From a virus: a stretch of DNA of 57,003 nt. Made by a program: the position numbers and the translations under genes. Location of the stretch: the IMG/VR virus record IMGVR_UViG_3300040801_002155, positions 1 through 57,003 of that record; one strand, given 5' to 3'. The notes below the pieces were generated by a model that saw nothing but the letters and a program-made list of their open reading frames with translations, ran no database searches and had not been told where the DNA came from. Shown here piece by piece: positions 13,366 to 29,448 of this stretch. How positions within the stretch are numbered: the first letter of the stretch is position 1; each line of letters starts with the position of its first letter.

Positions 13366-13394
13366 GGGTTCATTATACCCTTTGTTTTTATTGT
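13366..13394 (-). promoter_or_regulatory. Conserved promoter-like element (ACAATAAAAACAAAGGGTATAATGAACCC)
   Basis: One of at least 11 copies of the same ~29-nt block, each ending about 20 nt upstream of an RBS and ATG. Confidence 0.5.
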
Positions 13395-13397
13395 CTT

Positions 13398-13703
13398 TTA
13401 GATATGTCCTTTAAGTTCCGGAATCTTAAGTTCAACATAATCTTTAAATCCAGTTTCTCTGATTATCTTAAGTCCAACTTGTTTATTGACACGGTTTGCA
13501 AAACTAAGCCATTTTCGATCTTGTTCTTTTATAACACTGAGCATCGTCGAATTGGATTCCGAATGGCGCATTTTACAAATCTCTTTAACCTCATTTAAGA
13601 AATCAGCTAATATGGAGAAAATTTTATTATTTATTGCATCGGTGGTCTCATAGGGAATCCCGGCAACAAATTCATTTGCATACTCTTTAGCTTTTTTCAT
13701 CAT
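13398..13703 (-). CDS. Hypothetical protein (101 aa)
   Basis: Minus-strand ORF. Confidence 0.55.
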   Translation of the reverse strand: MMKKAKEYANEFVAGIPYETTDAINNKIFSILADFLNEVKEICKMRHSESNSTMLSVIKEQDRKWLSFANRVNKQVGLKIIRETGFKDYVELKIPELKGHI

Positions 13704-13944
13704 TTACTCCTTTGAATGTCCTATTCAACATTGGTAAGATCAAGTGAATATCCGTTGTGCCAAAAGTTTCGAAAAGAACTTTATCATCATAAGCTTTCTT
13801 CATCGCTTCTTTTAAAATTGGCAGCGACTTTTTAAGTATGCGTATAATTTCATTTACCACCTCTACCAATTTGGCGCAAGCTTCAATAAACGCCTCAATA
13901 TACATCTCTGAAACTTTATTAATTTTTGCAATTTCTGAATTCAT
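13687..13944 (-). CDS. Hypothetical protein (85 aa)
   Basis: Minus-strand ORF, helical and charged. Confidence 0.5.
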   Translation of the reverse strand: MNSEIAKINKVSEMYIEAFIEACAKLVEVVNEIIRILKKSLPILKEAMKKAYDDKVLFETFGTTDIHLILPMLNRTFKGVNDEKS

Positions 13945-13945
13945 C

Positions 13946-14404
13946 TTAGAATCCTCCCTCTGGAGATACTAAATGTGCAAGGTAACTAAGCGCCTCATCA
14001 TGCTCAGTAAATACAATGTCCGCAGCCTCAAGAATGAAGGCATGCCTATGAATATTATCCTCTTGCATAGTAAGAACAGTATGCTTTCGCAAAATATGAC
14101 CCCAGGCTAATTCCATAGTTGAGCCAATGGAAACGTGATTCGCCATACTCAAATTGCAATATAGGACATCGCACAAGGATACCATCCAGCAATCACGCTC
14201 AATAATAGCGTGGTTTGTTGACATTGGATAACCGGCATAGCCTTCTGCTTTGAATTTTAGTTCGTTTCGAAAATATCCCTTAGCTGTTAATGGACTAAAT
14301 ACTTGATAACCCATTCCCGTCAAAACGGACTTTACATTTTTAAAATATGAGAAAACATCTTCTCCACTTAATCCGCTAATAGATGCGGCGGTATAGATTT
14401 TCAT
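13946..14404 (-). CDS. Nucleoside 2-deoxyribosyltransferase-like protein (small form)
   Basis: MKIYTAASISG...GYQVFSP...CDVLYCNL...IGSTMELAWG fits the Rossmann-like NDT/DUF4406 pattern, recalled from memory. Confidence 0.5.
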   Translation of the reverse strand: MKIYTAASISGLSGEDVFSYFKNVKSVLTGMGYQVFSPLTAKGYFRNELKFKAEGYAGYPMSTNHAIIERDCWMVSLCDVLYCNLSMANHVSIGSTMELAWGHILRKHTVLTMQEDNIHRHAFILEAADIVFTEHDEALSYLAHLVSPEGGF

Positions 14405-15066
14405 AGCTTTTCCTCAATTTCTCGCATTCCGTTTTTATAGAAATTTAACAGCGGAGTTACGAATTTATTTTCATTTCTTCGGCATAAAGACTGTATTGTA
14501 TTCATATTTAATCCACCCATGATGATAAAGAAATCTGCCATGTCATTTGTACTTGGAAACATTAAAGTAACATTATGATGAATGATATCGAAATATCGAT
14601 CTTCTTTTTCGTTAATCATAAGTACTGGAATGCCTGCACCAATTGCAACGCCAACTTCAAATATCAATCCAATCCCAGAAGGATTATCTTCGGACATATA
14701 TGCAATTACTAAATCCGAGTCTAAAAGATTAATTCTATCCCATTTGGAGTATTGAATCGGATTGGTTAGACCACTTTTCCGAGGATCTACAAATAAAACC
14801 TCTGTATAGGCATTAATAAAGTAATCTTGCCAATCGCCATGCATTCCTCCAGACAAATATACTTTTGGTTGTTTTTCGTTTTTTCGAGGGATCGCAGTAC
14901 TTCTTTTACTTAAATAGTTTTCAAATTCTGAAAATAGCTTATCAAATTTGGTTTTTTCAAAATCTGCGGAATAAAGATACCCAGGAAAGCCCATTCCACC
15001 AAGTCTAGATTGCTTAATGGATAAAAATATTTTATAAATCTCTGCAAATAATGTTGACTCTTCCAT
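14401..15066 (-). CDS. Nucleoside 2-deoxyribosyltransferase-like protein
   Basis: PKVYLSGGMHGDW...SDLVIAYMSEDNPSGIGLIFEVGVAIGAGIPVLMI. Start set at MEESTLF (RBS AAAGGAG) just past the upstream stop. It overlaps the next gene by 4 nt. Confidence 0.6.
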   Translation of the reverse strand: MEESTLFAEIYKIFLSIKQSRLGGMGFPGYLYSADFEKTKFDKLFSEFENYLSKRSTAIPRKNEKQPKVYLSGGMHGDWQDYFINAYTEVLFVDPRKSGLTNPIQYSKWDRINLLDSDLVIAYMSEDNPSGIGLIFEVGVAIGAGIPVLMINEKEDRYFDIIHHNVTLMFPSTNDMADFFIIMGGLNMNTIQSLCRRNENKFVTPLLNFYKNGMREIEEKL

Positions 15067-15079
15067 TTTTATACTCCTT

Positions 15080-15508
15080 TCAGATAAATATAGGTGATTG
15101 TAATACTGCTTCAAGCTTCTGAATCGTTTCCGGTTTAGGAAATTTCTCTCCGTGTTCAATAGTATAAAGAGTATTCTTTCCTAAACCGGCTTTTTTTGAT
15201 AGGGCCACTTGCGATAAGCCCATCTCTGTTCTTAGTTTTTTTAATCTAATGGCATAGTCTGGAATATGATCCTTCTTATAAACTTCTCTATCATTCCAGC
15301 TTTCAATTGCTTTATTTCCGGTGGATTGCATAACGCCCAATTTCCAGCAATTTAAACAGATAACACGATAATTATTCTTATCATATTTTAATACTGTAGG
15401 GCCTCGCCTTCTTGTTGGAATGTTATATGGTGATTTACACTTTGGGCAAATATCAATCAGATGATCCATGAATTTTTTCCATGACCTCGCCGAAATCAAA
15501 AACGCCAT
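15080..15508 (-). CDS. Zinc-ribbon (Lar-like) + XRE-family HTH fusion protein
   Basis: N-terminus CPKC...CLNC...AIESWN. C-terminus LKKLRTEMGLSQVALSKKAGLGKNTLYTIEHGEKFP is a classic XRE HTH. Confidence 0.6.
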   Translation of the reverse strand: MAFLISARSWKKFMDHLIDICPKCKSPYNIPTRRRGPTVLKYDKNNYRVICLNCWKLGVMQSTGNKAIESWNDREVYKKDHIPDYAIRLKKLRTEMGLSQVALSKKAGLGKNTLYTIEHGEKFPKPETIQKLEAVLQSPIFI

Positions 15509-16370
15509 CCTTTTTCAAGCTTTTTAGATAATATATTAATCTATCCATTTCCTCATCTGTAAGTCCTGAATTGGTGGGTTTTGCAGCAAATTCTTCGGTT
15601 TCCATAATTTTTGGTTGAGTTCTAAGTTCATACTCATTATTAATAAAATCTGATAATTCTCGAATTAGCTGATTGCGCAAATCCATTACTTCAACAAGTG
15701 TTAGGTTTTCAAGTTCAGAAGCTCTAATTTGGATTTTTAAAAGAGAATCATTCTCATTATTTTTATACTCGTCAATTTTTCGTAAGGCCTCATCGAGATA
15801 CGTTAGGCTATCTAACTTTACAGGATCGATGATGTTTTGTTCTTTTTTCGTAAAATCTTCCATTGCTTGTTTAAAAGCCGCGTTTGCACGGTCTATATCC
15901 ACCGAAGTAGTAAAGTTGTATGCGACTTTATTATTCTGATCCTTTAGACTTACAGGTTCTGAAGTATCTTTTTTAAATTCTTCAATTTCTTTAAATAGTT
16001 CTAAAATTGCGCTTTCTTTTAGAAGCCGATTCGTTTCATAAAGAGCCGGAATATCTAAAGGATCTTCACGTGGCTTTTCATTATACAAACAGATTGCTAT
16101 AAGAGAATATACTGCTAGATCTAGCAGCGTATCGGTAATATGCTCTCCGACTTGATCGTTCGTAGGATCTTTGGAGAGATTACAAACCCGAATAAACTTA
16201 TCGCTCATCCGTATGAGGCATCCTTGAAAAGCAGATATACCTAACATCTCGGCCATACGGAAGTTTGCCCAAGGATCGTCCGCGTCCTTACCAGCATAGC
16301 CATCGTTTTTACGTTTATGCAGATCTCGAATATCATCTAACAGCTTTATGAATTCTTTACTTTCAGCCAT
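15453..16370 (-). CDS. DUF1599-like (MazG-like all-alpha) N-terminal domain + coiled-coil C-terminal region
   Basis: HKRKNDGYAG...GCLIRMSDKFIRVCNL...ITDTLLDLAVYSLIAI matches the DUF1599 pattern as I recall it. Confidence 0.45.
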   Translation of the reverse strand: MAESKEFIKLLDDIRDLHKRKNDGYAGKDADDPWANFRMAEMLGISAFQGCLIRMSDKFIRVCNLSKDPTNDQVGEHITDTLLDLAVYSLIAICLYNEKPREDPLDIPALYETNRLLKESAILELFKEIEEFKKDTSEPVSLKDQNNKVAYNFTTSVDIDRANAAFKQAMEDFTKKEQNIIDPVKLDSLTYLDEALRKIDEYKNNENDSLLKIQIRASELENLTLVEVMDLRNQLIRELSDFINNEYELRTQPKIMETEEFAAKPTNSGLTDEEMDRLIYYLKSLKKDGVFDFGEVMEKIHGSSD

Positions 16371-16878
16371 TGAAAACTCCTTCTAATATAACTTCGCCAT
16401 TTCGGATTGGAAAGATATGAAAATATGTTCCTGCGCGAAGATTGTCTATGAGCTCTGGATGACTTCCTTCAATAAGGGTTCGATATTCCTTTGCAATTTT
16501 AATGGCATCGGTTTTGTCTTTGGCCCAAATCCTAATTCTCATATCCATAAATCTAGGAGGCGTCGTGAAAATATCAAACTCGTGGTTTCCACCATAAATG
16601 ATCATATCTCCAGATTTCAATCCCGTAAGATCCTCATCATTAAAACTACCAGTATCAATGGATAAAATCTCTCCTTTTCGATCAAAATAAACGACCCAAT
16701 AATTATAATCTTCTGGGAATTTATTTAGGTCCCATTTATCCATAATAAATGGTTCAATGTTTGCCTCGTCATCATTCATTAATTTTTTATATTTTTCAGC
16801 ATCTTTTTCATTAGAAAACACTGCACAAATATGATACTCAGAATAGTACCCACTCGTTACAATAAAAACTTCAGCCAT
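16363..16878 (-). CDS. Hypothetical protein (171 aa)
   Basis: Minus-strand ORF overlapping both neighbours by 8 nt, consistent with translational coupling. Confidence 0.55.
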   Translation of the reverse strand: MAEVFIVTSGYYSEYHICAVFSNEKDAEKYKKLMNDDEANIEPFIMDKWDLNKFPEDYNYWVVYFDRKGEILSIDTGSFNDEDLTGLKSGDMIIYGGNHEFDIFTTPPRFMDMRIRIWAKDKTDAIKIAKEYRTLIEGSHPELIDNLRAGTYFHIFPIRNGEVILEGVFNG

Positions 16879-17374
16879 TGTCTTCTTCCTCCATTAACCA
16901 TTCTGGGTGATCTTCTCTGGCTTTTGCACATACTGCATTGCCTACGACTTTAAGCCAGGGCATACCAAGCTTTCCATTTTTGTATTGGTCATAATAATCT
17001 CTATAACGAGCCATTATTCGTGTTGGAGCATCGGCAATATTTTTTTGCCTCCAAGTATTACCCCATCTTCTTTGGTCTCCTTTAAGTCGAGCTAACATCA
17101 GGGGAACAAACTCGCGTTCGAAATAATGTATAAGTATTAAATCGTCTGGATCTTCTTCGGCTTCTTTAAGCAATCTAATCTTTTCTTTTGTAACCACATC
17201 ATTAAGACGAGAATATAAATACTCAAGCTGTTCACGATCTATATCAACTCTATATACATCATATGGTAAAGCATCGACATTACTAATTTTTGAAACTACT
17301 TCTGAACTAGTAATTCCATTGAATACAAGTTGAATTTCTTCCAATATTTCTAAAAGATGCTTAGTCATGGCCAT
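16871..17374 (-). CDS. Hypothetical protein, possibly related to NTP pyrophosphohydrolases
   Basis: GDQRRWGNTW...PWLKVVGNAVCAKAREDHPEW. Start set at MAMTKHLL (RBS AAGGAG). The family assignment is uncertain. Confidence 0.4.
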   Translation of the reverse strand: MAMTKHLLEILEEIQLVFNGITSSEVVSKISNVDALPYDVYRVDIDREQLEYLYSRLNDVVTKEKIRLLKEAEEDPDDLILIHYFEREFVPLMLARLKGDQRRWGNTWRQKNIADAPTRIMARYRDYYDQYKNGKLGMPWLKVVGNAVCAKAREDHPEWLMEEEDNG

Positions 17375-17741
17375 CGGATTTCTCCTTATTAATAATATCA
17401 TAAGTATCGCTTGTCATTAAAATATAAGCCGTATGATCATTATCGACAGCCAAACCAACTTCAATAAACGGAACTAATCTTTTACTTTCAGTTGGAGCTC
17501 CCACCGCCGAATATCTTTTGATTAAAACTCGAAGCAAATCGACGTCAGTAAAGCAGTCAAATATAATCTCTTTATTGCGCTCAAGAAATCCTGCCATTAC
17601 CTCTTTGGTCTTATCAATTAAGATCTTACCAGATGCAAGGGCATTGGTTAAGCGAGCAATCTCTTCGTTTTTGGCTTTGGTCATAGACAGTGCCCCGATG
17701 ATTAATCCGAGCACAAATATAAATAGAAATTGAATGAACAT
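17361..17741 (-). CDS. N-terminally anchored membrane protein (126 aa)
   Basis: MFIQFLFIFVLGLIIGALS TM segment. Confidence 0.5.
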   Translation of the reverse strand: MFIQFLFIFVLGLIIGALSMTKAKNEEIARLTNALASGKILIDKTKEVMAGFLERNKEIIFDCFTDVDLLRVLIKRYSAVGAPTESKRLVPFIEVGLAVDNDHTAYILMTSDTYDIINKEKSDGHD

Positions 17742-17752
17742 TTTATCTCCTT

Positions 17753-18682
17753 TTAATTGTAACCTTTTTCATAAACTTCTGCTAACATCTTAACTGCAAG
17801 TTGAATTTCCATGAATGCCAATGCACTATCATAATTCTTGTAGGCGTCAAATATCAATGGTTTGCTACGAGATAGCTCAAAATCAAACCATAAACGATCG
17901 CCTATGTCCGGAACATCTAAGTCATAGTTTAATTCAATCAATTTTAATGCGTGCATATAGTTTGGATCATCGATCGGAATAGACCCATTTAAAATATGCT
18001 TCTTAGCATTGACTGGACCCACCCCATTTACACCAGAAACATTATCAGATGAATCTCCGACCATTGCTTTATATGAGTCGAAATATAAAGGCTCAAACTC
18101 ATACTCTTCTACAAAATTGTTTTTGGTATAGAACACCCCGGGAAATTTATAGATATGACATCTATCATAATGTAGAAGCTGATACAAATCTTTATCCCCG
18201 CTAAATATAAATACATCTGTGGTGGACCTTTTAGGTCTTGCCCACGGCAAAGGATCAACACAAATAAGATTAACAATACTTGCTATTATATCATCTGCTT
18301 CTGCGCCATCCCTTCTTACTATTTCTGTATCTATATCTTCGAGTATTCGTGGCATTATTTCCCTAAAATTCCTGAAATTTTCATCCTTAACAGGAACTCG
18401 ATTCTGTTTATATGAGGAATCTATTTTGGTTCTATTCAGTTTGGTTCGGCTCTCTCCGGCAAATATAAATTCTATTGGGGTAGTACCCACTCCGGCCCTT
18501 TGAATCAAGAGCCGGAGCGAATCGAGAAACTGTACTATAGGAACCCAAGGATGAAGTTCCCTGTCTTTTATACCACTAAAGTATGACCTATACAAAATGT
18601 TTGCATAGTCTACCAGTAACAAGATTTTCGTTAATTGGTCTTCTTCTTTTAATTCTGGTCTAATTGGTGAGAGCTTCTTCAT
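17753..18682 (-). CDS. 5'-3' exonuclease / flap endonuclease (Pol I N-terminal-domain-like)
   Basis: PIN-like LLLVDYANILYR and AEADDIIA, plus the H3TH motif VGDSSDNVSGVNGVGPVNAKK. Confidence 0.8.
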   Translation of the reverse strand: MKKLSPIRPELKEEDQLTKILLLVDYANILYRSYFSGIKDRELHPWVPIVQFLDSLRLLIQRAGVGTTPIEFIFAGESRTKLNRTKIDSSYKQNRVPVKDENFRNFREIMPRILEDIDTEIVRRDGAEADDIIASIVNLICVDPLPWARPKRSTTDVFIFSGDKDLYQLLHYDRCHIYKFPGVFYTKNNFVEEYEFEPLYFDSYKAMVGDSSDNVSGVNGVGPVNAKKHILNGSIPIDDPNYMHALKLIELNYDLDVPDIGDRLWFDFELSRSKPLIFDAYKNYDSALAFMEIQLAVKMLAEVYEKGYN

Positions 18683-18690
18683 ATTATCCC

Positions 18691-19674
18691 CTATTCGGGC
18701 ATGTGATCAATGATTGGCCCATCTACATTAAAATCTAACAAGAATGGCTCACCGTTCCGAATGGCAGTATAACCAAGGGTTTGGTTCATCAAAGCATCAA
18801 CCTCCGGCCCAAAGGAGACATAATTATCTCCTTCTCCCTGCCAACGCCACCCAACGATCTGACCGGCCTTTGTACGAGGAAATCCTAATTCATAATAGAC
18901 ATCATTAAGATATAAATATCCATGTGCCTTAAGATGATCGTTTGCCCATATATTTTTAGCCTTTAAGGTAAGGGCATTATAATCGGGATGTGGCGACCAT
19001 TGACTACTACCAGTGTAGGTACCGTCTGTATTCCAGACCTGTTTTTCAAATAAACGGGCATACATATCAGTACCAAATCCATCTGGTAAAACCTGAATTT
19101 CTTTCTTTACCTTTTTGGTTTTCCCATTCTCATCGGTAACCTTTTCTGTTAGGGTTTGGTATTCTGTACCATAACGGAAATGGAAATCCCGATCTGAACC
19201 AAGTTCATCGATTACTCGACTGCGGTACTCAGTAAATGCCTTATCGATTACACGATAGGCAGCGACTAACGCAATATTCCTTTTTCGAAGGATCTTCTGG
19301 CCGCCAACAATTGCCACTGCAGATCCAAGGCCCAGCATAACTATCGGACCATATAGAACCACAAAATCTCGGGCAGTTTGAGCATAGACTAATACCGTAT
19401 CTTGCTTTTCATTTTCTTCAGAATAATCTGGAACAACTTCTAATGCGTTTTTTACATCCGCCATCTTTAATTGATGGTTGGTTAAAATTTGTTCCGCCTT
19501 TGTTTCCGCTTTGGCTAATTTATATGCGGCAAATCCAAGACCAAATATACCAGCTATAGTCAAAATCTCTGGAGAGTATTCTTTTACTTTAAATGCTGCC
19601 ATACTTCCAAATTTTACAAGTTTACCTTTCATGCACGTTAATTTATTTGTGCAAGTTGTCAATTCAGTACTCAT
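18691..19674 (-). CDS. Two-TM hypothetical protein, paralog of 26341..27066
   Basis: Shares with the paralog: TM-loop-TM, A(A/L)xxxYxxxxxxxxEYRxxV(I/V)(D/E)xxG, and LND(V/F)YYELG(F/L). Confidence 0.6.
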   Translation of the reverse strand: MSTELTTCTNKLTCMKGKLVKFGSMAAFKVKEYSPEILTIAGIFGLGFAAYKLAKAETKAEQILTNHQLKMADVKNALEVVPDYSEENEKQDTVLVYAQTARDFVVLYGPIVMLGLGSAVAIVGGQKILRKRNIALVAAYRVIDKAFTEYRSRVIDELGSDRDFHFRYGTEYQTLTEKVTDENGKTKKVKKEIQVLPDGFGTDMYARLFEKQVWNTDGTYTGSSQWSPHPDYNALTLKAKNIWANDHLKAHGYLYLNDVYYELGFPRTKAGQIVGWRWQGEGDNYVSFGPEVDALMNQTLGYTAIRNGEPFLLDFNVDGPIIDHMPE

Positions 19675-19766
19675 TATAGATCTCCTTTTTACTTTAGTAA
19701 TTTAAAAAAATATAAGAATAGTATTCTTTAATCATTTACCAGATCTGGCAAATGGAATACTACTCT

Positions 19767-19792
19767 ATTATAGGGTTTGTAATTTTTGTAGG
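19767..19792 (-). promoter_or_regulatory. Variant of the conserved promoter-like element
   Basis: Minus strand reads CCTACAAAAATTACAAACCCTATAAT, upstream of 18691..19674. Confidence 0.35.
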
Positions 19793-23882: not shown

Positions 23883-23966
23883 CGTCACCTCCTTTTTTTT
23901 AAATATAAGTATATAATTAAGGTATAGCGCCATTAGGTTGCGGCGCCATAGGCACGCTCCTTTCTT

Positions 23967-24001
23967 AAAAGAAAATAGCCTAAGATTTCTCTCAGGCTAT
24001 T
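23967..24001 (-). terminator. Rho-independent terminator, identical to 13067-13100
   Basis: Same 35-nt string aaaagaaaatagcctaagatttctctcaggctatt on the plus strand. Confidence 0.7.
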
Positions 24002-24008
24002 CGCTTTT

Positions 24009-24185: not shown

Positions 24186-24206
24186 TTCAACTCCTTAGAA
24201 TATAAT

Positions 24207-24235
24207 GGTTTCATTATAGGAGTTGTTTTTGTTGT
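24207..24235 (-). promoter_or_regulatory. Conserved promoter-like element (ACAACAAAAACAACTCCTATAATGAAACC)
   Basis: Copy of the ~29-nt block, upstream of 24009..24185. Confidence 0.5.
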
Positions 24236-24249
24236 CAAAACGTCTTGAG

Positions 24250-24447
24250 TTAGGCGGCCTCAACAACTGTTTCGGAAACTTCTTCCATCGCAGCCGCAAT
24301 GTTCTCAAGTTCATTAGGAACTTCGGTTCCGTACTGAACAGCTTTAACAAGCACGAATGCGCCAACTGCAACACCAACGGCAATCCCCGCGGTTTTCAAT
24401 GGATTTTCTTTTACGAAACTAACGACTTTACTAATTTGCTCTTGCAT
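24250..24447 (-). CDS. Small membrane protein (65 aa)
   Basis: TM segment AGIAVGVAVGAFVLV and an acidic tail. The N-terminus MQEQ is shared with 25065..25298. Confidence 0.5.
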   Translation of the reverse strand: MQEQISKVVSFVKENPLKTAGIAVGVAVGAFVLVKAVQYGTEVPNELENIAAAMEEVSETVVEAA

Positions 24448-24506
24448 TTTTTTACTCCTTTTAAATTAATAGTTTTTGATTTTATGTTTTTATGCGATAT
24501 ACTATT

Positions 24507-24692
24507 CTATGGTTTTTCGATGAAAATATAATATTTGCCGTCGGGCTCCTTTCTAATTACTCCATCATTTTCTATAGACGTTTCACTCATCCACAATTCA
24601 GCTTCTTTATACGAATTAAAATGCATTTTTTCATACTGTTTCATCTTGAAATTCGTAATTTTAATTCCGCCGCTTCCACTATATCCTTCCAT
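24507..24692 (-). CDS. Hypothetical protein (61 aa)
   Basis: Minus-strand ORF with a GGAGG RBS. Confidence 0.45.
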   Translation of the reverse strand: MEGYSGSGGIKITNFKMKQYEKMHFNSYKEAELWMSETSIENDGVIRKEPDGKYYIFIEKP

Positions 24693-24718
24693 ATTACCTC
24701 CTTAACAAAAAGTAAAGC

Positions 24719-25009
24719 CTAGGTTTCCCTAGGCAGTACTTCTTCTGATTCCGTTTTCATAGATTTGATTTTTTGAATCGTTTCCTTTCCAAAATCAGTG
24801 ACTTCAGTTACAATCTTCTCCGCAGAAGCGGCAACAGCCGCTCCAACAGTAGTCGCAATCGTTACCTCTCCAATTTTCACGAGTATCTCTGACGATTTAC
24901 TCATGACTACATCTTTGGTAACTTTCTTGACTGTCAGCTTGAGGACTTCCTTCGCTCCCATGGAGCTGATCGTTCCTGTCACTAATTTCACAATGGGAAT
25001 TACATTCAT
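24719..25009 (-). CDS. Hypothetical protein (96 aa)
   Basis: Minus-strand ORF directly downstream of a conserved promoter element. Confidence 0.5.
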   Translation of the reverse strand: MNVIPIVKLVTGTISSMGAKEVLKLTVKKVTKDVVMSKSSEILVKIGEVTIATTVGAAVAASAEKIVTEVTDFGKETIQKIKSMKTESEEVLPRET

Positions 25010-25034
25010 TTCTAATCTCCTTTACAAATAGTGT

Positions 25035-25063
25035 GGTTTCATTATACCCTTTGTTTTTATTGT
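25035..25063 (-). promoter_or_regulatory. Conserved promoter-like element (ACAATAAAAACAAAGGGTATAATGAAACC)
   Basis: Copy of the ~29-nt block, upstream of 24719..25009. Confidence 0.5.
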
Positions 25064-25064
25064 A

Positions 25065-25298
25065 CTATCCCTTGTATAATATTTTTCCAACAAAATTTGC
25101 AACAGCGGTTGTAGAACTGATCGCACAATATCCTGCAATTACCTTATGCCAGCTTTTAATTTCGGCCGCTCTCTGTTTATCAAAATTTTCATCCGGCTTG
25201 TAAACCGAGTTCAAACCTTCAGAAACTGCATTGAATGTAAGAATTGATGTTCCGACAATCGCCGTTATTAAAATGTATCCTTTCATTTGCTCTTGCAT
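25065..25298 (-). CDS. Small membrane protein (77 aa)
   Basis: Two hydrophobic segments. Confidence 0.5.
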   Translation of the reverse strand: MQEQMKGYILITAIVGTSILTFNAVSEGLNSVYKPDENFDKQRAAEIKSWHKVIAGYCAISSTTAVANFVGKILYKG

Positions 25299-25328
25299 TT
25301 TTACTCCTTTTCAGATAGTACTGGTGAA

Positions 25329-25904
25329 TTAATATCTTTTTTTTATTGGATCTGGTATTTCGGCACATTTTTCTGCATTAATTGGCCAATCATGATATTT
25401 TAATTGATTAAATATATCCAGAGGATTTGTTAATACCTCTGGATACCACACTTCATCATAAGTAATACTATGTTCTTTGAAGAATGAAATATCTAAAAGA
25501 GCAGTTGTTAATAGTCGCATAAGTTCATCATCGTCTAATTCATTGCCCATATGAATACGAACACGTTTTGCAGATTCAAATACTTCATGAATATCTCTTC
25601 GCATCATTACCGTTTTAAAGACAACATTTTTAGGCATTGTCCTTAACTCATCTACTTTATGAAGGAAAAGTTTTACTAATTGTCCTTCATACATAGCAGG
25701 AAAGTTCTTTTTATGCCGAGCCTTATAACCAAGCTCATAATATCCGTTTCTATTTGGTATATATCCATTTATAATTTTATCTCGTTTTGTATTTGATTCT
25801 TGATATGCTCCTTTCATTCCTCCAGCAATTAGAGATTCCATCATCATTGACGTTCCGCTACGAACCAGACCAGATACTACATAAACAATTTTTTGCTTCA
25901 TCAT
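25329..25904 (-). CDS. Sulfotransferase-like P-loop protein
   Basis: VVSGLVRSGTSMM resembles the 5'-PSB loop of PAPS-dependent sulfotransferases, and VMMRRDIHEVFES resembles the 3'-PB RDPxD motif. Judged from memory only. Confidence 0.4.
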   Translation of the reverse strand: MMKQKIVYVVSGLVRSGTSMMMESLIAGGMKGAYQESNTKRDKIINGYIPNRNGYYELGYKARHKKNFPAMYEGQLVKLFLHKVDELRTMPKNVVFKTVMMRRDIHEVFESAKRVRIHMGNELDDDELMRLLTTALLDISFFKEHSITYDEVWYPEVLTNPLDIFNQLKYHDWPINAEKCAEIPDPIKKRY

Positions 25905-25936
25905 TTTATCCTTTGAAATAGTTTATGAAAAAGAAA

Positions 25937-25990
25937 AGGGTCTGTTAGACCCTAGTCTTTTGAAACGGCAAAAAGGGTCTTTTAGACCCT
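25937..25990 (-). terminator. Tandem pair of near-identical Rho-independent terminators
   Basis: AGGGTCT-nnn-AGACCCT hairpins at 25937-25953 and 25974-25990. On the minus strand each is followed by a T-run. The second overlaps the stop of 25982..26302. Confidence 0.65.
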
Positions 25991-26302
25991 AGTCTTTGAG
26001 ACGAAAGAAATCGCCTTGCTTGAGATAATGTCCAATTTCTCGTGTCCGATGATCAATAATATGCCCAGTAGATTAGTTGCCGCCGAGACGATCACGTTCG
26101 GGTCAACCTTATCAAAAAACCGTTTGTCTACAGATTCTTTTTCTGTAGGCTTTTCTTCTTTTAACAAATTGGCCAAAACCTTGAGCCTCTCGTTCAGGTC
26201 TCTAAACTTTGTGGGATCTTTTTCTTCCATCATTTCACGGATGATTTTTCTCATCTCTTTGCGAAGTTCCTCTCTCGTTTCAAGATCTACTATGGTTTCC
26301 AT
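25982..26302 (-). CDS. Hypothetical protein with a C-terminal TM segment (106 aa)
   Basis: Charged helical N-terminus, then VSAATNLLGILLIIG. Confidence 0.55.
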   Translation of the reverse strand: METIVDLETREELRKEMRKIIREMMEEKDPTKFRDLNERLKVLANLLKEEKPTEKESVDKRFFDKVDPNVIVSAATNLLGILLIIGHEKLDIISSKAISFVSKTRV

Positions 26303-26319
26303 CTTTACTCCTTTCTAGT

Positions 26320-26347
26320 GGTTTCATTATAAGGCATGTTTTATTTG
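26320..26347 (-). promoter_or_regulatory. Degenerate copy of the conserved promoter-like element
   Basis: Minus strand reads CAAATAAAACATGCCTTATAATGAAACC. It overlaps the 3' end of 26341..27066. Confidence 0.3.
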
Positions 26348-27066
26348 CGGGGCGTGACCTCATAACTTAAAACCAGACAAGGTTTTCCATCTTTAGTTAA
26401 CTGACTTGAGAAATTTATTTGTATTAGGCCATCATCCACATTAAATCCTAAATCATAGCCCAAATCTGTGGGGTCTAATCCCAGTTCATAATAAAAATCA
26501 TTTAGTGAAATAAATCCTTCAAGCATCAGTTCACGATTTGTTTCGTTTATTTTTTGTCTAATCTTTTCAATATCCGATTGAAAATATCTTCCACTTAAAG
26601 CATCAAGGCATAATACATCCCCAGATCCAGTAATTATCACATGTGTTTGAGGATTTGCAAATACTTTATCTTGATCAATCGCATCACGAAGTACTTGCTC
26701 TTTCTTTTCTCCTATTGTTTCTACAACTTTTTGACGATATTCATTTAGTGTAGACTGGGTTATAGAATATAATCCAACAAGGGCCGCCTTTTTCCTTTCA
26801 TTAATCGTATTGGCCCCAAGTATTGCAACCGTCGTTATGATTACACTAGCCGCTGTTGGAATATAAAATTTCCATGCAACTTTGATTTTCTCCTTCGTTG
26901 TTTCGCACTCATATTTTCTTATGGCTTCTACTGCCTTCGGGGTTGCGTCAATCGCAAAGACCGTTGAAGTAAATAAACCTGTAATGGCTATCCCCGTAAG
27001 GATATGAGTGCTGTTTTGTTCGACAAATCTTCCAAGTCCCTTCATGCTTTGTTTTATACTAAACAT
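26341..27066 (-). CDS. Two-TM hypothetical protein, paralog of 18691..19674
   Basis: Shared architecture and the SLNDFYYELGL motif. Confidence 0.6.
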   Translation of the reverse strand: MFSIKQSMKGLGRFVEQNSTHILTGIAITGLFTSTVFAIDATPKAVEAIRKYECETTKEKIKVAWKFYIPTAASVIITTVAILGANTINERKKAALVGLYSITQSTLNEYRQKVVETIGEKKEQVLRDAIDQDKVFANPQTHVIITGSGDVLCLDALSGRYFQSDIEKIRQKINETNRELMLEGFISLNDFYYELGLDPTDLGYDLGFNVDDGLIQINFSSQLTKDGKPCLVLSYEVTPRK

Positions 27067-27182
27067 GTGTGCTCCTATACTTTATGGTGAATAAATATAA
27101 ATATGGCTCGGTGCGAGATTCCGCGGTTAATTTTATTCTCTACCCGACTTACGCTCCGCTTCTTTAAAAAGACCATAAAAGT

Positions 27183-27500
27183 TTATTGTTTAATACCGCA
27201 AAATTCCCCCAAATATCGCTCTTTTTCGCCAGTGAGATAGCGAAAACGGCGAATATCAAAATCGCTAATTGGAGTATAGTGTTGTCCCTTAATCAGCATT
27301 GTGCTGAACACGAGCTGATTGTCTGACATATGACGATCTCCACTATAAGTAGAAGCATTGCCATTGGTCTCGTTGTGCAAACGAATAATCTCATTCGCAG
27401 CGCTAATAACCCCCTGAATGGCCTCGTTAACAGTAAGACCACAATACTGAATCATGTGAATGACCCAAATAAAAATAAAATTTACGATATCGCCGGGCAT
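27183..27500 (-). CDS. Hypothetical protein (105 aa)
   Basis: Minus-strand ORF with an RBS. Confidence 0.55.
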   Translation of the reverse strand: MPGDIVNFIFIWVIHMIQYCGLTVNEAIQGVISAANEIIRLHNETNGNASTYSGDRHMSDNQLVFSTMLIKGQHYTPISDFDIRRFRYLTGEKERYLGEFCGIKQ

Positions 27501-27598
27501 GTTTTTCTCCTTTCAAGAGAGTTAAAAATTTGATAAATGTGAAAGAAATAAAAGGCTAAGTTTTAACTTCTCTTAGTCTTTTATTTTTGAAATATTAT

Positions 27599-27751
27599 TT
27601 AACGGTTAAATTGTTCCGCAAATGTATCAATCTTTTCTCTTTGATTTTTGATACGTTTATCAATCTTACGACTTATAAGAATTGCTCTTACAGCCGAAAC
27701 AATTGATATCATAAAAAAAATTCCTGATATAACTAATACTATAGCAAACAT
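27599..27751 (-). CDS. Mini membrane protein A (50 aa) of the cassette array
   Basis: Hand translation: MFAIVLVISGIFFMISIVSAVRAILISRKIDKRIKNQREKIDTFAEQFNR. RBS AAAGGAGATTAAAAATG. Confidence 0.55.
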   Translation of the reverse strand: MFAIVLVISGIFFMISIVSAVRAILISRKIDKRIKNQREKIDTFAEQFNR

Positions 27752-27774
27752 TTTTAATCTCCTTTTAATAGTAT

Positions 27775-27850
27775 GGTTTCATTATAGGAGTTGTTTTTAT
27801 TGTAGGAGAGAAAGAAATAAACCGATGTTTTGGTTTACTTCTTTTGAAAC
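27775..27850 (-). promoter_or_regulatory. Terminator-plus-promoter cassette, copy 1
   Basis: Minus strand reads GTTTCAAAAGAAGTAAACCAAAACATCGGTTTATTTCTTTCTCTCCTACAATAAAAACAACTCCTATAATGAAACC. It combines a 10-bp hairpin (one G.U pair, on the minus strand only) with the promoter block. Confidence 0.55.
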
Positions 27851-27866
27851 TTAATCTTCGGGCTTT

Positions 27867-28049
27867 TCATTTTTTTGAATAAAATTCCTCTCGGATCATT
27901 CCTGCCATTCCAAGTATACCGAAGAGCAGATACATGACTCCAAAAATTGGATGATATACATCATCAAATTTGAAGAAGAACAAATACGTTCCCCAAGCAA
28001 CTACGGAAGTGTACAAGAATATCTGAATATAAAAAATTATTCTACTCAT
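27867..28049 (-). CDS. Mini membrane protein B (60 aa)
   Basis: Tracked ORF MSRIIFYIQIFLYTSVVAWGTYLFFF...; two TM segments. Confidence 0.55.
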   Translation of the reverse strand: MSRIIFYIQIFLYTSVVAWGTYLFFFKFDDVYHPIFGVMYLLFGILGMAGMIREEFYSKK

Positions 28050-28070
28050 TTTTAAACTCCTTTTAATAGT

Positions 28071-28146
28071 GGTTTCATTATAGGAGTTGTTTTTATTGTA
28101 GGAGAGAAAGAAATAAACCGATGTTTTGGTTTACTTCTTTTGAAAT
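28071..28146 (-). promoter_or_regulatory. Terminator-plus-promoter cassette, copy 2
   Basis: Near-identical to copy 1. Confidence 0.55.
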
Positions 28147-28152
28147 TTAACT

Positions 28153-28305
28153 TTATGGTTTATTGATTGTAATCTTAACGATTCCCAATTCTCGAATCAT
28201 TAGTGCAATAAATACTGCTACGATGATCACTTTCCCAAAAGGGATCACCGAAACAATAATCGATACAATAACAAGTGTGAATAGGGCTTTAATTAACCTC
28301 TTCAT
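28153..28305 (-). CDS. Mini membrane protein C (50 aa)
   Basis: Hand translation: MKRLIKALFTLVIVSIIVSVIPFGKVIIVAVFIALMIRELGIVKITINKP. Confidence 0.55.
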   Translation of the reverse strand: MKRLIKALFTLVIVSIIVSVIPFGKVIIVAVFIALMIRELGIVKITINKP

Positions 28306-28328
28306 TTCAATTCTCCTTTTAATAGTAT

Positions 28329-28409
28329 GGTTTCATTATACCCTTTGTTTTTTTTGTAGGTAAGGAGAGAAAGAAATAAACCGATGTTTTGGTTTACTTC
28401 TTTTGAAAC
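28329..28409 (-). promoter_or_regulatory. Terminator-plus-promoter cassette, copy 3 (AGGG variant)
   Basis: Same hairpin. The promoter block reads ACAAAAAAAACAAAGGGTATAATGAAACC. Confidence 0.55.
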
Positions 28410-28589
28410 TCAATTGAATATAAAATCGAGCGACTCTGCATATTTATCTGAAAGTTCCTCAGGCTCTACTCCTGCAATTAGAGCAAGTATAGTGAAGCTT
28501 ACAATATATAAAAATACTGCAAGCGACCCAATAATTGATTTAATTACAACTAATATAACCATGAGAACACGTAAAATAAATTGTTTCAT
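28410..28589 (-). CDS. Mini membrane protein D (59 aa)
   Basis: Hand translation: MKQFILRVLMVILVVIKSIIGSLAVFLYIVSFTILALIAGVEPEELSDKYAESLDFIFN. Confidence 0.55.
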   Translation of the reverse strand: MKQFILRVLMVILVVIKSIIGSLAVFLYIVSFTILALIAGVEPEELSDKYAESLDFIFN

Positions 28590-28612
28590 CTTAATCTCCT
28601 TTAATAGTTAAT

Positions 28613-28693
28613 GGTTTCATTATACCCTTTGTTTTTTTTGTAGGTAAGGAGAGAAAGAAATAAACCGATGTTTTGGTTTACTTCTTTTGAAAC
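28613..28693 (-). promoter_or_regulatory. Terminator-plus-promoter cassette, copy 4
   Basis: Identical to copy 3 over the part I compared. Confidence 0.55.
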
Positions 28694-28861
28694 TTAATCT
28701 TCATCTAAGAATGTCTTCATGCTCTTTTCTAAATTTTTCATTGTTACTTGTGCAATGTATGGCGCGATGATTGGGGACAATAGTAGTTGAACTACCGCCC
28801 AAATAGCTTGCGCTAATACGAGTGCAAAAATAATCAATACGAAATCTACAAATGTAAACAT
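28694..28861 (-). CDS. Mini membrane protein E (55 aa)
   Basis: Hand translation: MFTFVDFVLIIFALVLAQAIWAVVQLLLSPIIAPYIAQVTMKNLEKSMKTFLDED. Confidence 0.55.
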   Translation of the reverse strand: MFTFVDFVLIIFALVLAQAIWAVVQLLLSPIIAPYIAQVTMKNLEKSMKTFLDED

Positions 28862-28885
28862 TTTTAATCTCCTTTAATAGTTAAT

Positions 28886-28972
28886 GGTTTCATTATACCC
28901 TTTGTTTTTTTTGTAGGTCTAATAAAGGAGAGAAAGAAATAAACCGATGTTTTGGTTTACTTCTTTTGAAAC
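28886..28972 (-). promoter_or_regulatory. Terminator-plus-promoter cassette, copy 5
   Basis: Same as copy 3, with a short insertion (tctaataaa) between the hairpin and the promoter. Confidence 0.55.
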
Positions 28973-28974
28973 TT

Positions 28975-29157
28975 TTAATCTTTGGATTTGTCATTTAGAA
29001 CGCTCGCGGCTGCGAATAATACTAGCAGCCCTGTAATGTAGAACGTCCCTACCGTATAGAGGCTATCCTGACTTGCGCCAGTAAACACCAATACGGTGAG
29101 GAACACCCCACCCAACAAGGCAAATAATAAATATCCGATTTCCTTTAGTACTTTCAT
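28975..29157 (-). CDS. Mini membrane protein F (60 aa)
   Basis: MKVLKEIGYLLFALLGGVFLTVLVF... The tracked 69-aa form starts at the ATG inside the promoter motif (TATAATGAAACC) and is probably too long. Confidence 0.55.
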   Translation of the reverse strand: MKVLKEIGYLLFALLGGVFLTVLVFTGASQDSLYTVGTFYITGLLVLFAAASVLNDKSKD

Positions 29158-29176
29158 TTCAACTCCTTTTAATAGT

Positions 29177-29245
29177 GGTTTCATTATAGGAGTTGTTTTT
29201 GTTGTAAGAAAAATAAAAGCCGATGTTATGGCTTCTATTTTTTAC
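29177..29245 (-). promoter_or_regulatory. Terminator-plus-promoter cassette, copy 6 (different hairpin, AAGCC/GGCTT)
   Basis: Promoter block conserved. The hairpin sequence has diverged, but the structure and the T-run are retained. Confidence 0.5.
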
Positions 29246-29248
29246 CAG

Positions 29249-29398
29249 TTAGTTAATAGTTGATAGTACATTTAAAATTTCTAGATAATTATTTTTGACT
29301 GCTTGTCCTAATAAGGTAGCAACAATAATAACAATTAATGCAACTACCATAAATAAGAAAAAACGTTCACAAATCAAATCTACAAATTTTGTATTCAT
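29249..29398 (-). CDS. Mini membrane protein G (49 aa)
   Basis: Hand translation: MNTKFVDLICERFFLFMVVALIVIIVATLLGQAVKNNYLEILNVLSTIN. Confidence 0.5.
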   Translation of the reverse strand: MNTKFVDLICERFFLFMVVALIVIIVATLLGQAVKNNYLEILNVLSTIN

Positions 29399-29419
29399 TT
29401 CAACTCCTTAAAATATAGT

Positions 29420-29448
29420 GGTTTCATTATAGGAGTTGTTTTTATTGT
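29420..29448 (-). promoter_or_regulatory. Conserved promoter-like element, first copy after the end of the late operon
   Basis: Minus strand reads TTACAATAAAAACAACTCCTATAATGAAACC. Confidence 0.5.

Follow-up and report, generated by a model that had tools for sequence, protein, structure and literature searches.

A conserved promoter block of about 32 bp in a siphovirus-like genome and its candidate reader, a phage-encoded two-barrel RNA polymerase

The window, that is, the whole analysed stretch of 57,003 nucleotides (IMG/VR record IMGVR_UViG_3300040801_002155), holds a complete siphovirus-like genome of 56,886 bp, all genes of which are carried on the minus strand. Since positions 1-117 are identical to positions 56887-57003, an RNA-polymerase ORF is continuous across the window junction. 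Its N-terminal 671 codons, with HTH modules, both barrels and SGADFDGDTVLV, lie at 1-2015 (minus strand), and its C-terminal 219 codons, with a C-terminal HTH, at 56229-56886 (minus strand); the open frame has 891 codons and gives 890 aa from its ATG. This gene is located directly upstream of a late region of 26.7 kb. The last late gene (29539-30366) is followed by a strong minus-strand hairpin at the late/early boundary (29485-29520; -23.8 kcal/mol, z -6.2). A DNA primase-polymerase gene was found at 4691-8518 and an HTH_3 protein gene at 15080-15508, and many window ORFs have no recognisable function.

Thirteen copies of a block of ~32 nt, (T)ACAAnAAAAACA-N5-TATAAT-GAAACCA, were identified in the window, all of them intergenic and on the coding strand; the late region has none. 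A window search with TATAATGAAACCA gave 10 exact matches and one with a single mismatch, on the minus strand only (13365, 24206, 25034, 26319, 27774, 28070, 28328, 28612, 28885, 29176 and 29419). When up to two mismatches were allowed, 13 matches were obtained against 4.7 expected, a number reached in none of 100 shuffles, and a repeat search returned a 32-nt family of 11 copies and a 38-nt family of 10. A weight matrix was trained on 51 instances from other genomes only, with the window excluded. Its top 13 matches in the window were exactly the 13 copies (10.5-30.7 bits); the next window match had 1.3 bits, compared with maxima of 4.4 on the opposite strand and 12.1 in 20 shuffles. One more decayed copy, lacking TATAAT, lies in 24448-24506. 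The preliminary description had reported a ~29-nt block repeated at least 11 times. The repetition was borne out at agreeing positions, and the length is corrected to ~32 nt (-31 to +1). Of the copies that it called degenerate, those at 2909 and 19767 do belong to the family and are among the top 13 of the matrix; the third, at 26320, is a member too, but its 13-mer is exact and it differs only upstream (CCGCAAATAAAACATGCCT).

All blocks are on the minus strand, and their scores are those of the outside-trained matrix. Block 1 (29419-29450; 21.1 bits) is the first copy past the terminator of the last late gene and stands 5' of a 49-aa membrane-protein ORF. The cassette array continues with blocks 2 (29176-29207; 20.4 bits), 3 (28885-28916), 4 (28612-28643) and 5 (28328-28359; 20.2 bits for each of these three), 6 (28070-28101) and 7 (27774-27805; 18.6 bits for both). 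Block 8 (26319-26350) is the best match at 30.7 bits; it carries the ancestral type of upstream element, CCGCAA, and is the positional orthologue of a copy in a relative (L014:10737), just downstream of a DUF6353 gene. Among the dispersed copies, block 9 (25034-25065; 15.9 bits) has flanks unrelated to the array, and block 10 (24206-24237; 19.1 bits) has the upstream element TTGACA 14 nt from TATAAT. Block 11 (19760-19791; 10.5 bits) is a variant, CCTACAAAAATTACAAACCC-TATAAT-AGAG, with TTGCCT at 17 nt; its leader, which precedes a second DUF6353 gene, is structured. Block 12 (13365-13396; 11.8 bits) is a GAACCCA variant. Block 13 (2907-2938; 13.4 bits), 5' of an operon of a nuclease and the RNA polymerase, resembles a host promoter more closely than any other copy (TTAATA, 16 nt, TATAAT); its leader has a hairpin followed by a U-run, and its orthologues in three relatives read TGn-TATAAT.

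Seven copies form terminator-promoter-RBS cassettes, each 5' of an unrelated gene for a membrane protein of 49-60 aa. The seven small ORFs (27599-29398, minus strand; 29249-29398, 28975-29157, 28694-28861, 28410-28589, 28153-28305, 27867-28049 and 27599-27751) are mutually unrelated, and each has a hydrophobic membrane-type segment (maximum 19-residue hydropathy 1.98-3.07). Five near-identical intrinsic-terminator hairpins, AAGAAGTAAACCAAAACATCGGTTTATTTCTT (-14 kcal/mol, z -6.6), lie on the minus strand between 27812 and 28965 (27812-27843, 28108-28139, 28371-28402, 28655-28686 and 28934-28965) with a promoter block directly downstream of each, and the cassette 1 terminator hairpin is at 29212-29239 (minus strand; z -5.0). 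Within the array, DNA identity is 0.59 for the ORFs versus 0.80 for the intergenic parts, and five of the seven spacers share ~100 nt of intergenic DNA including the terminator, which is 0.79-0.96 identical (0.92-0.96 in two subgroups). This long identity probably arose by recent duplication or gene conversion of a regulatory module around unrelated ORFs; the earlier proposal that cassette duplication explains part of the conservation holds for the seven-cassette array only. PeSL (promoter-early stem-loop) cassettes of T4-type phages reportedly mediate small-ORF shuffling. The array resembles them in its near-identical intergenic modules of stem-loop and early promoter, set between unrelated small ORFs in a plastic part of the genome, and in an intergenic identity far above that of the ORFs. 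PeSL promoters are ordinary sigma-70 early promoters, whereas the promoter part of the window cassettes is conserved across phyla.

The ~100 nt shared around unrelated ORFs, together with the recurrence of the same terminator sequence at 13072-13101 and 23973-24002, could also mean that the block is not primarily a promoter but a repeat that duplication or recombination has spread (a mobile module for regulation or recombination), or else an element acting at the RNA level, its promoter likeness being incidental. This is very improbable, because similarity among the six dispersed copies ends at the -31 to +1 block plus SD context, and because the block keeps a strict strand, an intergenic site and a fixed distance to the start codon and is retained across genomes that have no other DNA similarity. 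It also gave zero matches to Rfam families. Copies also follow terminators. In relatives the motif is found before tRNA genes too and is therefore not a translation signal. That the block is a transcription promoter is nearly certain.

The -10 hexamer is a perfect TATAAT in 13/13 copies, and TG at -15/-14 is absent from all of them, both as first described. A -35/-10 pair at 16-18 nt was accepted in 1 of the 11 copies visible to a consensus promoter scan and in 3/13 by a whole-genome scan, which left 10 without one and agrees with the reported lack of a conserved -35 at 17 nt. The TTACAA-like hexamer noted about 13 nt away was found, as a TTACAA/TTGACA-like element, 13-14 nt from TATAAT. The order of block, RBS and ATG was also described correctly; the distance of 15-20 nt was not, since in 11 copies the RBS starts 10-18 nt and the ATG 23-31 nt after the hexamer (the ATG ~17-25 nt from the block end). 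Two copies have longer leaders, with the ATG 92 nt (copy at 19772) and 61 nt (copy at 2919) after the hexamer.

These features could be those of -35-independent host promoters, with host sigma-A holoenzyme alone starting at all 13 copies and the perfect -10 aided by the A-tract spacer and the upstream T-rich terminator tails. The copies would then drive the early/middle genes including the polymerase operon, and the polymerase would transcribe the 26.7-kb late operon, like YonO in SPbeta; the extra conserved positions would be explained by inheritance of a strong promoter module from a common ancestor, or by contacts between the spacer and conserved parts of the core enzyme. We consider this main alternative somewhat unlikely, although several observations speak for it. 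Besides the invariant hexamer and the three copies that pass the -35 test, classical intrinsic terminators bound the cassettes and the polymerase gene is immediately upstream of the motif-free late region. The promoter scan detected no other host-type promoter class in the intergenic DNA of the window, yet some start site for the host enzyme has to exist, and function with a -10 alone is frequent among actinobacterial promoters. YonO, moreover, transcribes the late genes as a single long operon from one promoter (PMC5467207). On the other hand, promoters without a -35 at 16-18 nt (10/13 copies) and without TG are normally weak in Firmicutes.

Further evidence against host sigma-A as the only reader came from related phages. 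The motif search suggested in the preliminary description gave 73 instances in 10 related genomes/contigs, none of them on the non-coding strand, with the shared design tCGCaa-A/T-ACA-N5-TaTaAT-GA (full consensus tcgCaa.Aa.tACA..gc.TaTaATGA.A); the motif was found in additional IMG/VR contigs too. The motif-bearing phages have 33-59% GC, and their hosts include Lactococcus, Faecalibacterium, Arthrobacter, Gordonia and Streptomyces. The conserved parts are about one helical turn apart: (T)CGCA/TACAA at about -28, ACA at -20 to -18, and T.T.AT at -12 to -7 followed by GA.A. Conservation at -31 to -27, -20 to -18 and -6 to -3, where sigma-A is not known to make a base-specific contact, extends over phages from two bacterial phyla. 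Descent alone is insufficient for such conservation because the flanking DNA and ORFs have diverged completely. In addition, sigma-70-type recognition needs A at -11. This base is missing from Faecalibacterium phage FP_oengus (CTTTAT in 9/9 copies) and from 4/6 copies of Streptomyces phage RosaAsantewaa (TTAAAT or TTATAT), with the flanks conserved in both. FP_oengus also encodes an integrase, and at least nine unrepressed strong sigma-A promoters are hard to square with lysogeny. Invariance within the genome, from which recognition by something beyond host sigma-A alone had been argued, is weak on its own, but the argument gains support from the cross-phyla positions and the loss of A-11 in two relatives. 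Weak host use of all copies in the low-GC window phage is nevertheless possible, because every copy has a perfect TATAAT.

A protein of ~890 aa is encoded by all motif-bearing phages; it contains a DFDGD motif and fused HTH modules and has the two-barrel fold of RNA polymerases. Homologues of the window polymerase occur in every motif-bearing genome (37-64% identity), with SGADFDGD invariant among them. The window protein matches phrog_4291 (E = 0), and its AF2 model matches QDE-1 (E 5e-11) and RDR2, the Thermus phage non-virion RNAPs 8f72 and 8f5m (E 1e-6), and also AR9 and cellular RNAP subunits. HTH_23 and Sigma70_r4_2 domains are located at aa 79-107 and a further HTH at aa 860-885. No close relative without the polymerase was found: full-length matches to the DNA polymerase (252 records) and to the RNAP (250 records) coincide, and the co-occurrence of motif and polymerase is therefore one without a negative control. 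The polymerase is the only non-replication, non-structural gene reported to be common to the lineage, and the protein has been noted with YonO-like and crAss-like motifs (bioRxiv 10.1101/842583). The phage polymerase proposed earlier as a reader is thus a real candidate, but it is this 890-aa enzyme and not the DNA primase-polymerase.

The two-barrel RNAPs of Thermus phage P23-45 offer a precedent, since a conserved motif found together with such an enzyme turned out to be its promoter; the virion RNAP gp96 uses an AT-rich motif and the non-virion RNAP gp64 a GC-rich one (PMC10770324). The window phage is similar in having a strongly conserved multi-copy motif 5' of early genes in polymerase-encoding relatives, and a single-chain two-barrel enzyme that matches the gp64-type structures. 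It differs in the motif sequence and in its enzyme, which bears HTH modules as fused parts but has no fusion to the tape measure protein. The enzyme is also comparable to YonO of Bacillus prophage SPbeta, a single-polypeptide RNAP of ~100 kDa with a DxDGD catalytic loop, whose gene is likewise directly upstream of the late operon (PMC5467207). YonO, however, has one promoter of undefined sequence, whereas the window has many copies of its candidate promoter, which lie in the early/middle region, and none in the late region. T7-type promoters share a motif of >20 bp that hardly varies between the upstream element and the start site, many repeats on one strand and, as proposed for the window phage, a host enzyme that is first to reach the polymerase gene. 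They lack a TATAAT hexamer in the sigma -10 position, and the right-hand single-subunit T7 polymerase and the two-barrel window enzyme have unrelated folds.

An element in place of the -35 also recalls T4 middle promoters, which combine a MotA box at -30 with a sigma-70 -10 and no -35 and depend on sigma appropriation by MotA/AsiA. By analogy, a phage-encoded specificity factor, either an activator with a sigma-appropriation partner or a divergent sigma, could bind the elements at about -28 and -19 and redirect the host core or holoenzyme, leaving the polymerase another task. The conserved element 12-14 bp upstream of the -10 (13-14 nt in the window) is placed like a MotA box, and the HTH_3 protein and the ORFs without a recognisable function offer candidates. 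We nonetheless judge this improbable. Sigma, MotA and AsiA homologues were not found in the 41 scanned window ORFs, and TCGCA/TACAA plus ACA is not the MotA box consensus. The window promoters, unlike the T4 middle class, head the very first genes past the late terminator, and the factor would have to be pre-made or injected with DNA that carries only block-type promoters. Activators do not usually make up for the loss of A-11 from the hexamer, as in FP_oengus, and outside replication and structure only the polymerase is reported lineage-wide (bioRxiv 10.1101/842583).

The reading that we favour, with about even confidence, is a lineage-specific promoter read by the phage's own polymerase and bootstrapped by the host enzyme. 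Several observations count against it. All 13 window hexamers are perfect sigma-A -10 elements, and classical hairpin-plus-U terminators, which are a signal of bacterial RNAP, close the cassettes. The motif-free late region beside the polymerase gene fits at least as neatly with the host reading the motif and the phage enzyme the late genes, and late-gene transcription is not explained by the model. Furthermore, the polymerase operon itself sits behind a motif copy, and the model therefore needs host bootstrapping or a packaged enzyme. Injection of the polymerase, made a condition for this reader in the preliminary description, is not required, as the promoter of its operon is the most host-like copy.

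Under the favoured reading, host sigma-A would start infection at 2907-2938, the copy with the best host-type features. The ~890-aa single-subunit two-barrel RNA polymerase, most likely the direct reader of the block, would go on to transcribe 13 units, of which seven are probably monocistronic (terminator, promoter, 23-31-nt leader, SD and small membrane-protein gene). Recognition of the upstream elements would fall to its two N-terminal and one C-terminal HTH modules, which resemble sigma region 4, and melting would take place at the AT-rich hexamer. Judged from sequence comparison, a ~32-bp promoter characterises a large lineage of siphoviruses, namely Lactococcus 1706-like phages, FP_oengus and actinophage clusters BI, AM, AU, AW, DJ, CC and EL, and the block is the form that it takes in the window phage.

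The 13-mer TATAATGAAACCA occurs in the window in ten exact copies and one copy with a single mismatch, all on the minus strand, and these 11 matches bore out the copy coordinates of the preliminary description, which had drawn attention to a repeated promoter-like block. Variants at 19772 and 2919 brought the copy number to 13 (such positions are the plus-strand coordinate of the first T of TATAAT). Each of the 13 was intergenic and lay on the coding strand, with none on the opposite strand. The conserved unit extends from -31 to about +1 and reads (T)ACAAnAAAAACA-N5-TATAAT-GAAACCA; in 11 copies an ATG follows 23-31 nt after the hexamer, with AAAGGAG in between. The feature is real, and both its extent and, by a wide margin, its conservation exceed what could be seen on first reading. 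Because of its strand, its intergenic sites, the terminators that precede it, the SD sequences or tRNA genes that follow it, and its conservation across genomes, there is little room for the block to be anything other than a promoter. At 24448-24506, a decayed block, TCGCATAAAAACATAAAATCAAAAAC, has kept the ancestral upstream element and lost TATAAT; as a promoter it may be dead or very weak. At copy 19772, which precedes the second DUF6353 gene, the leader is unusually long: the ATG comes 92 nt behind the hexamer, and two hairpins and a U-run are found at 19690-19759 (z -3.0). The gene at 27183-27500 lies behind a terminator-like hairpin (27501-27598) and has neither a block copy nor a recognisable promoter.

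A search of related genomes for the motif, as had been proposed in the preliminary description, gave a total of 73 instances in 10 genomes or contigs. Ten copies of TTTAAGTTTTACATACCC-TATAAT-GAAAGGA were found in Lactococcus phage P092 (GC 33%), eight of TCGCGTAAATTACAnGGGn-TATAAT-(A)GAAGA in Arthrobacter phage Cheesy (GC 45%), 12 of TCGCnnnnAnTACAnGnCn-TATAAT-GAGACCCCTAyGAAAGGA in Gordonia phage Avazak (GC 51%), and nine of CGCGAAAAATnCA-N5-CTTTAT-GGA in Faecalibacterium phage FP_oengus (GC 48%). The block's design was also present in Streptomyces phages SendItCS (five copies) and RosaAsantewaa (six copies), both with a GC content of 59%, and in the IMG/VR contigs L002, L004, L005 and L007 (GC 37-55%; 2-3 copies each). 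In uncultured relatives whose DNA polymerase is 74-78% identical, TCGCAnAAAAAACA-N5-TATAATGAAA was found at several intergenic sites, one of them orthologous to window copy 26331. The motif is conserved in genomes without other shared DNA similarity, with the consensus tcgCaa.Aa.tACA..gc.TaTaATGA.A from -31 to -3. When a weight matrix was trained on 51 instances from genomes other than the window, its top 13 hits in the window were the 13 copies (10.5-30.7 bits); the next hit scored 1.3 bits, the opposite strand gave at most 4.4 bits, and the late region of the window gave no hits. A loose core pattern, scanned in GC-rich stretches, was found 11, 5 and 7 times on the coding strand of Avazak, SendItCS and RosaAsantewaa, respectively, against 0 on the other strand, and a stricter family score gave no hits on the non-coding strand of any genome. 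The motif also precedes tRNA genes in P092 and FP_oengus, and tRNA-like genes lie directly downstream of it at about 8600 and 8988 in P092 (L016) and at about 2900-3000 in FP_oengus (L021). When representative bacterial genomes were scanned for the exact pattern, the hits were all single and at chance level and offered no clue to the host, and these genomes showed no sign of the motif as a common cellular promoter type. No description of the motif was found in the searchable open literature, and no transcription data for this phage group were found there.

The block had been proposed not to fit a plain sigma-A promoter. It has the -10 of such a promoter, TATAAT, in all 13 window copies. In most copies it lacks the -35 element, and it has the TGn extension in none; what had been reported of the missing -35, the missing TG and the TTACAA-like hexamer 13 nt away was upheld. 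The consensus promoter scan accepted only one of the 11 in-range copies as a -35/-10 pair, and it found 72 promoter-like sites in all against 74 expected from shuffles, so no excess was seen. In the whole-genome scan, at least four of six -35 consensus matches at 16-18 nt were present in three of the 13 copies, and no other strong canonical promoter class was found in the intergenic DNA of the genome. A TTGACA- or TTACAA-like hexamer stands 13-14 nt from TATAAT, and TG at -15/-14 is absent from all 13 copies. Sigma region 2 flips out A-11 to nucleate melting. This base is present in the window but is not kept among homologues, being replaced by T in all nine copies of FP_oengus (CTTTAT) and in four of the six of RosaAsantewaa (TTAAAT, TTATAT) with the flanks still conserved, whereas T-7 is kept everywhere. 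The strongest bases across genomes are C-28, ACA at -20 to -18, T-12, T-10, A-8, T-7, G-6, A-5 and A-3; the conserved bases differ from those of a sigma-70-type pattern. A shifted -10 register that would allow a 17-nt spacer was rejected because it gives AATGAA (TTTATG or TAAATG in relatives), without the key bases. The SigH, SigE, SigK, SigD and ECF sigma factors were also considered, and with their known spacings none fits two elements 13-14 nt apart.

The block shares a geometry with T4 middle promoters, in which the -35 is replaced by an element at -30 that accompanies the -10, and the MotA box consensus is centred at -30. The upstream element of the block is of a different sequence, and no motA- or asiA-type families were found in the scanned ORFs. 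A long, near-invariant, multi-copy motif on the coding strand and through the start site, as is characteristic of promoters of phage RNAPs, was observed from -31 to about +1, and the block would resemble the phage-RNAP promoters of T7 and P23-45 in function.

Recent duplication had also been suspected as a source of the conservation, and this holds for part of it. Between 29.45 and 27.6 kb lie seven successive units, each composed of a terminator hairpin with a U-tail (-14 kcal/mol, z -5 to -6.6), the block, a short SD leader and an ORF of 49-60 aa with a strongly hydrophobic 19-residue segment. The ORFs are mutually unrelated (mean DNA identity 0.59, about background), whereas the last 100 nt of the intergenic spacers have a mean identity of 0.80; five spacers are 0.79-0.96 identical over about 100 nt, and 0.92-0.96 within two subgroups. 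Near-identical promoter and stem-loop modules thus surround unrelated small ORFs, so part of the invariance of the array reflects recent duplication or gene conversion of a regulatory module. The array in this respect resembles the PeSL modules of T4-type phages. Promoters are unmentioned in the accounts PMC5513430 and PMC13313380. For the six dispersed copies (26331, 25046, 24218, 19772, 13377 and 2919), similarity ends at the block and its SD context, which argues for selection on the block itself. A 30-nt terminator hairpin, AAATAGCCTGAGAGAAATCTTAGGCTATTT, is present twice, at 13072-13101 and 23973-24002 (10.9 kb apart), each time located, in transcription order, about 200-270 nt past dispersed copy 13377 or 24218 with one small gene between, so regulatory modules are reused beyond the array too.

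The arrangement of the genome bears on which enzyme reads the block. Bases 1-117 of the window are identical to bases 56887-57003, which makes the window one closed 56,886-bp genome, and all its credible genes are on the minus strand. The late block runs from about 55.2 kb to 29.5 kb with terminase, portal, fused protease/capsid, tape measure and tail proteins; the fused capsid-maturation protease/major capsid gene (41427-43313) is typical of this supercluster. Small and unknown genes follow from 29.4 to about 10 kb, including a ligase, an exonuclease, an HTH_3 protein, two DUF6353 paralogues (26341-27066 and 18691-19674) and two adjacent ORFs at 13946-15159 with weak, sub-threshold matches to nucleoside 2-deoxyribosyltransferase. 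Replication genes come next and encode an ssDNA-binding protein, a 1275-aa DNA primase-polymerase and a helicase. The last operon in transcription order ends in an 891-codon ORF that crosses the junction (2015 to 1, then 56886 to 56229, minus strand), and ORF lists blind to the identity of the ends therefore miss the largest regulatory gene, that of the RNA polymerase. Megablast of 24-30 kb found no close relative at the DNA level among 50,697 phage records, protein identities to phage records were about 52% at best, the tail genes beside the cassettes had no relatives in viral or metagenome collections, and a DNA polymerase query found none in representative bacterial genomes. No Rfam families and no tRNA genes were found in the window. 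In the late region, 38337-39000 (664 nt) was left without a called gene by a simple gene call; one or two unannotated ORFs are probably present there, as the sequence resembles coding DNA whose product would be hydrophobic. In the gap 8519-8813, which lies upstream of the DNA primase-polymerase, nine TGTCACA/TGTGACA 7-mers are clustered at 8554-8808; six of the nine sit in A-tract iterons such as AAAAGTGTCACA, and an AT-rich stretch comes after the cluster. This array has the appearance of a replication origin or of a set of binding sites. Analogous arrays were seen in the relative L012 (at about 9930) and, with GTGGCCAAAAAC repeats, in Arthrobacter phage Cheesy (L017:44462-44899).

The junction-spanning ORF encodes a protein of 890 aa with SGADFDGDTVLV at aa 506-517, a DxDGD metal-binding loop in which S506-D513 is invariant in 44 homologues. 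The phage-encoded polymerase that had been put forward as a possible reader of the block does exist in the form of this two-barrel RNA polymerase; it is not the 1275-aa ORF at 4691-8518, which was rejected for the role as it is the DNA primase-polymerase. The 890-aa protein matched phrog_4291, annotated as 'RNA-dependent RNA polymerase', over its full length (E = 0) and the Pfam RdRP family weakly. Two HTH modules are N-terminal and one is C-terminal, with HTH_23 and Sigma70_r4_2 at aa 79-107 and a further HTH at aa 860-885. PDB sequence searches, with the single sequence and with a profile, gave nothing significant beyond weak HTH matches. An AlphaFold2 model of residues 1-670 was built from 44 homologues (mean pLDDT 74). 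In Foldseek this model matched QDE-1 (E 5e-11), RDR2 (E 5e-7) and the P23-45-like Thermus phage non-virion RNAPs (gp64/gp62; 8f72, 8f5m; E 1e-6), and then the AR9 and cellular RNAP large subunits (cellular beta-prime); TM-scores were only 0.25-0.37, so this two-barrel likeness is confined to the catalytic core. The protein belongs to a very large family: of 8,000 scored candidates from the metagenome protein collection, only one did not pass E 1e-10, and many metagenome homologues have precomputed Sigma70_r4 or GerE-type HTH hits. Among sequenced phages, 250 records encode the polymerase, nearly coinciding with the 252 records of full-length DNA polymerase relatives; the hosts are Arthrobacter, Gordonia, Streptomyces, Lactococcus, Curtobacterium, Microbacterium, Rhodococcus and Faecalibacterium, and human-associated contigs also encode it. 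A host-spanning supercluster has been defined and a YonO-like and crAss-like DxDGD motif noted in this protein, and promoters are not discussed in that preprint (bioRxiv 10.1101/842583). Motif and polymerase were present together in all eight genomes or contigs in which the polymerase region was examined, a co-occurrence that has no negative control because no close relative without the polymerase was found in the phage collection.

The chance that the block is read by the phage polymerase is judged to be about even. This reading is favoured by the HTH modules of the enzyme, by a scan of 41 ORFs in which neither a sigma factor nor MotA or AsiA was found, and by the precedent of P23-45, in which a conserved early motif co-occurring with a two-barrel phage RNAP was shown to be its promoter (PMC10770324). 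The conserved elements have their centres near -28.5, -19.5 and -9.5, with roughly one helical turn between neighbours, which would place all three on one face of the DNA and would suit a protein equipped with several HTH modules. Reading of the elements at about -28, -19 and -10 would then fall to the fused HTH modules together with the catalytic core. The main alternative is that the host sigma-A reads the 13 blocks and the phage enzyme reads the late operon, and this accounts equally well or better for the gene layout. The polymerase gene is directly upstream of a 26.7-kb late region without a motif copy, and YonO, the only characterised relative, transcribes one long late operon from a single promoter (PMC5467207). 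The perfect TATAAT in all 13 window copies and the classical bacterial-type terminators at the ends of the cassettes point the same way, but the absence of a -35 in most copies and of a TG extension in all, and the loss of A-11 among homologues, do not accord with an ordinary sigma-A promoter.

Since the polymerase operon itself lies behind a block (2907-2938), reading by the phage polymerase would require either that the host primes the system at this copy or that the enzyme is packaged. Copy 2907-2938 is the most host-like of all (TTAATA, 16 nt, TATAAT), and its orthologues in three relatives have TGC-TATAAT, an extended -10. If packaging proceeds from the terminase end in a lambda-like manner, the polymerase operon would be at the end entering the cell first; this is suggested by a cos-like CTCCGGGGGA at 55352-55361, which matches the physical left end of Streptomyces phage RosaAsantewaa. 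The sequence lies in a 286-nt GC-rich non-coding gap (55164-55449), together with a G7/C7 hairpin (55390-55420); the gap is bordered on one side by the two small genes that follow the RNA polymerase and on the other by the first late gene. It is probably the cos/packaging region, and late transcription possibly starts there. In the leader from the promoter copy to the first gene of the polymerase operon (2850-2906), a hairpin followed by 7-10 U stands directly before the SD. Equivalent leader hairpins were found in two other relatives (L012:15597-15650 and L008:5774-5825) and in P092 (L016:29454-29510); the fold is weak in the window (z -0.4) but more pronounced in the relatives (z -2.7 to -4.6). 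This hairpin could act as a conserved attenuator, restricting expression by a polymerase that is sensitive to terminators.

It is explicitly an open question how promoters are located by YonO-like two-barrel single-subunit RNA polymerases, and the YonO promoter is still undefined (PMC5467207). The block represents a promoter of a phage lineage, credibly linked to a family of polymerases that is uncharacterised. In a fuller and more tentative proposal, to which we give somewhat less than an even chance, the block would be the first recognisable promoter of uncharacterised, self-sufficient, single-chain two-barrel RNAPs with their own sigma-region-4-like HTH modules; it would be read from one face, its design would have been kept as the phage lineage passed between Firmicutes and Actinobacteria, and mimicry of the sigma-A -10 in low-GC hosts would allow dual use. 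The block offers a concrete 32-bp candidate promoter for the study of promoter finding by YonO-like enzymes, with natural variation in at least 73 instances from hosts of two phyla, and the HTH-fused polymerase is encoded by phages of Lactococcus, Arthrobacter, Gordonia and Streptomyces that are in culture and simple to work with, so the question of recognition is directly testable. If host sigma-A reads the block, it would represent a strong -35-less promoter architecture working in two phyla and would explain the expression of the small membrane-protein gene arrays typical of this lineage. If the phage enzyme reads it, the block and the polymerase would form a compact, host-independent promoter/polymerase pair for Gram-positive bacteria, and promoter recognition would be built into a minimal relative of cellular RNAP.
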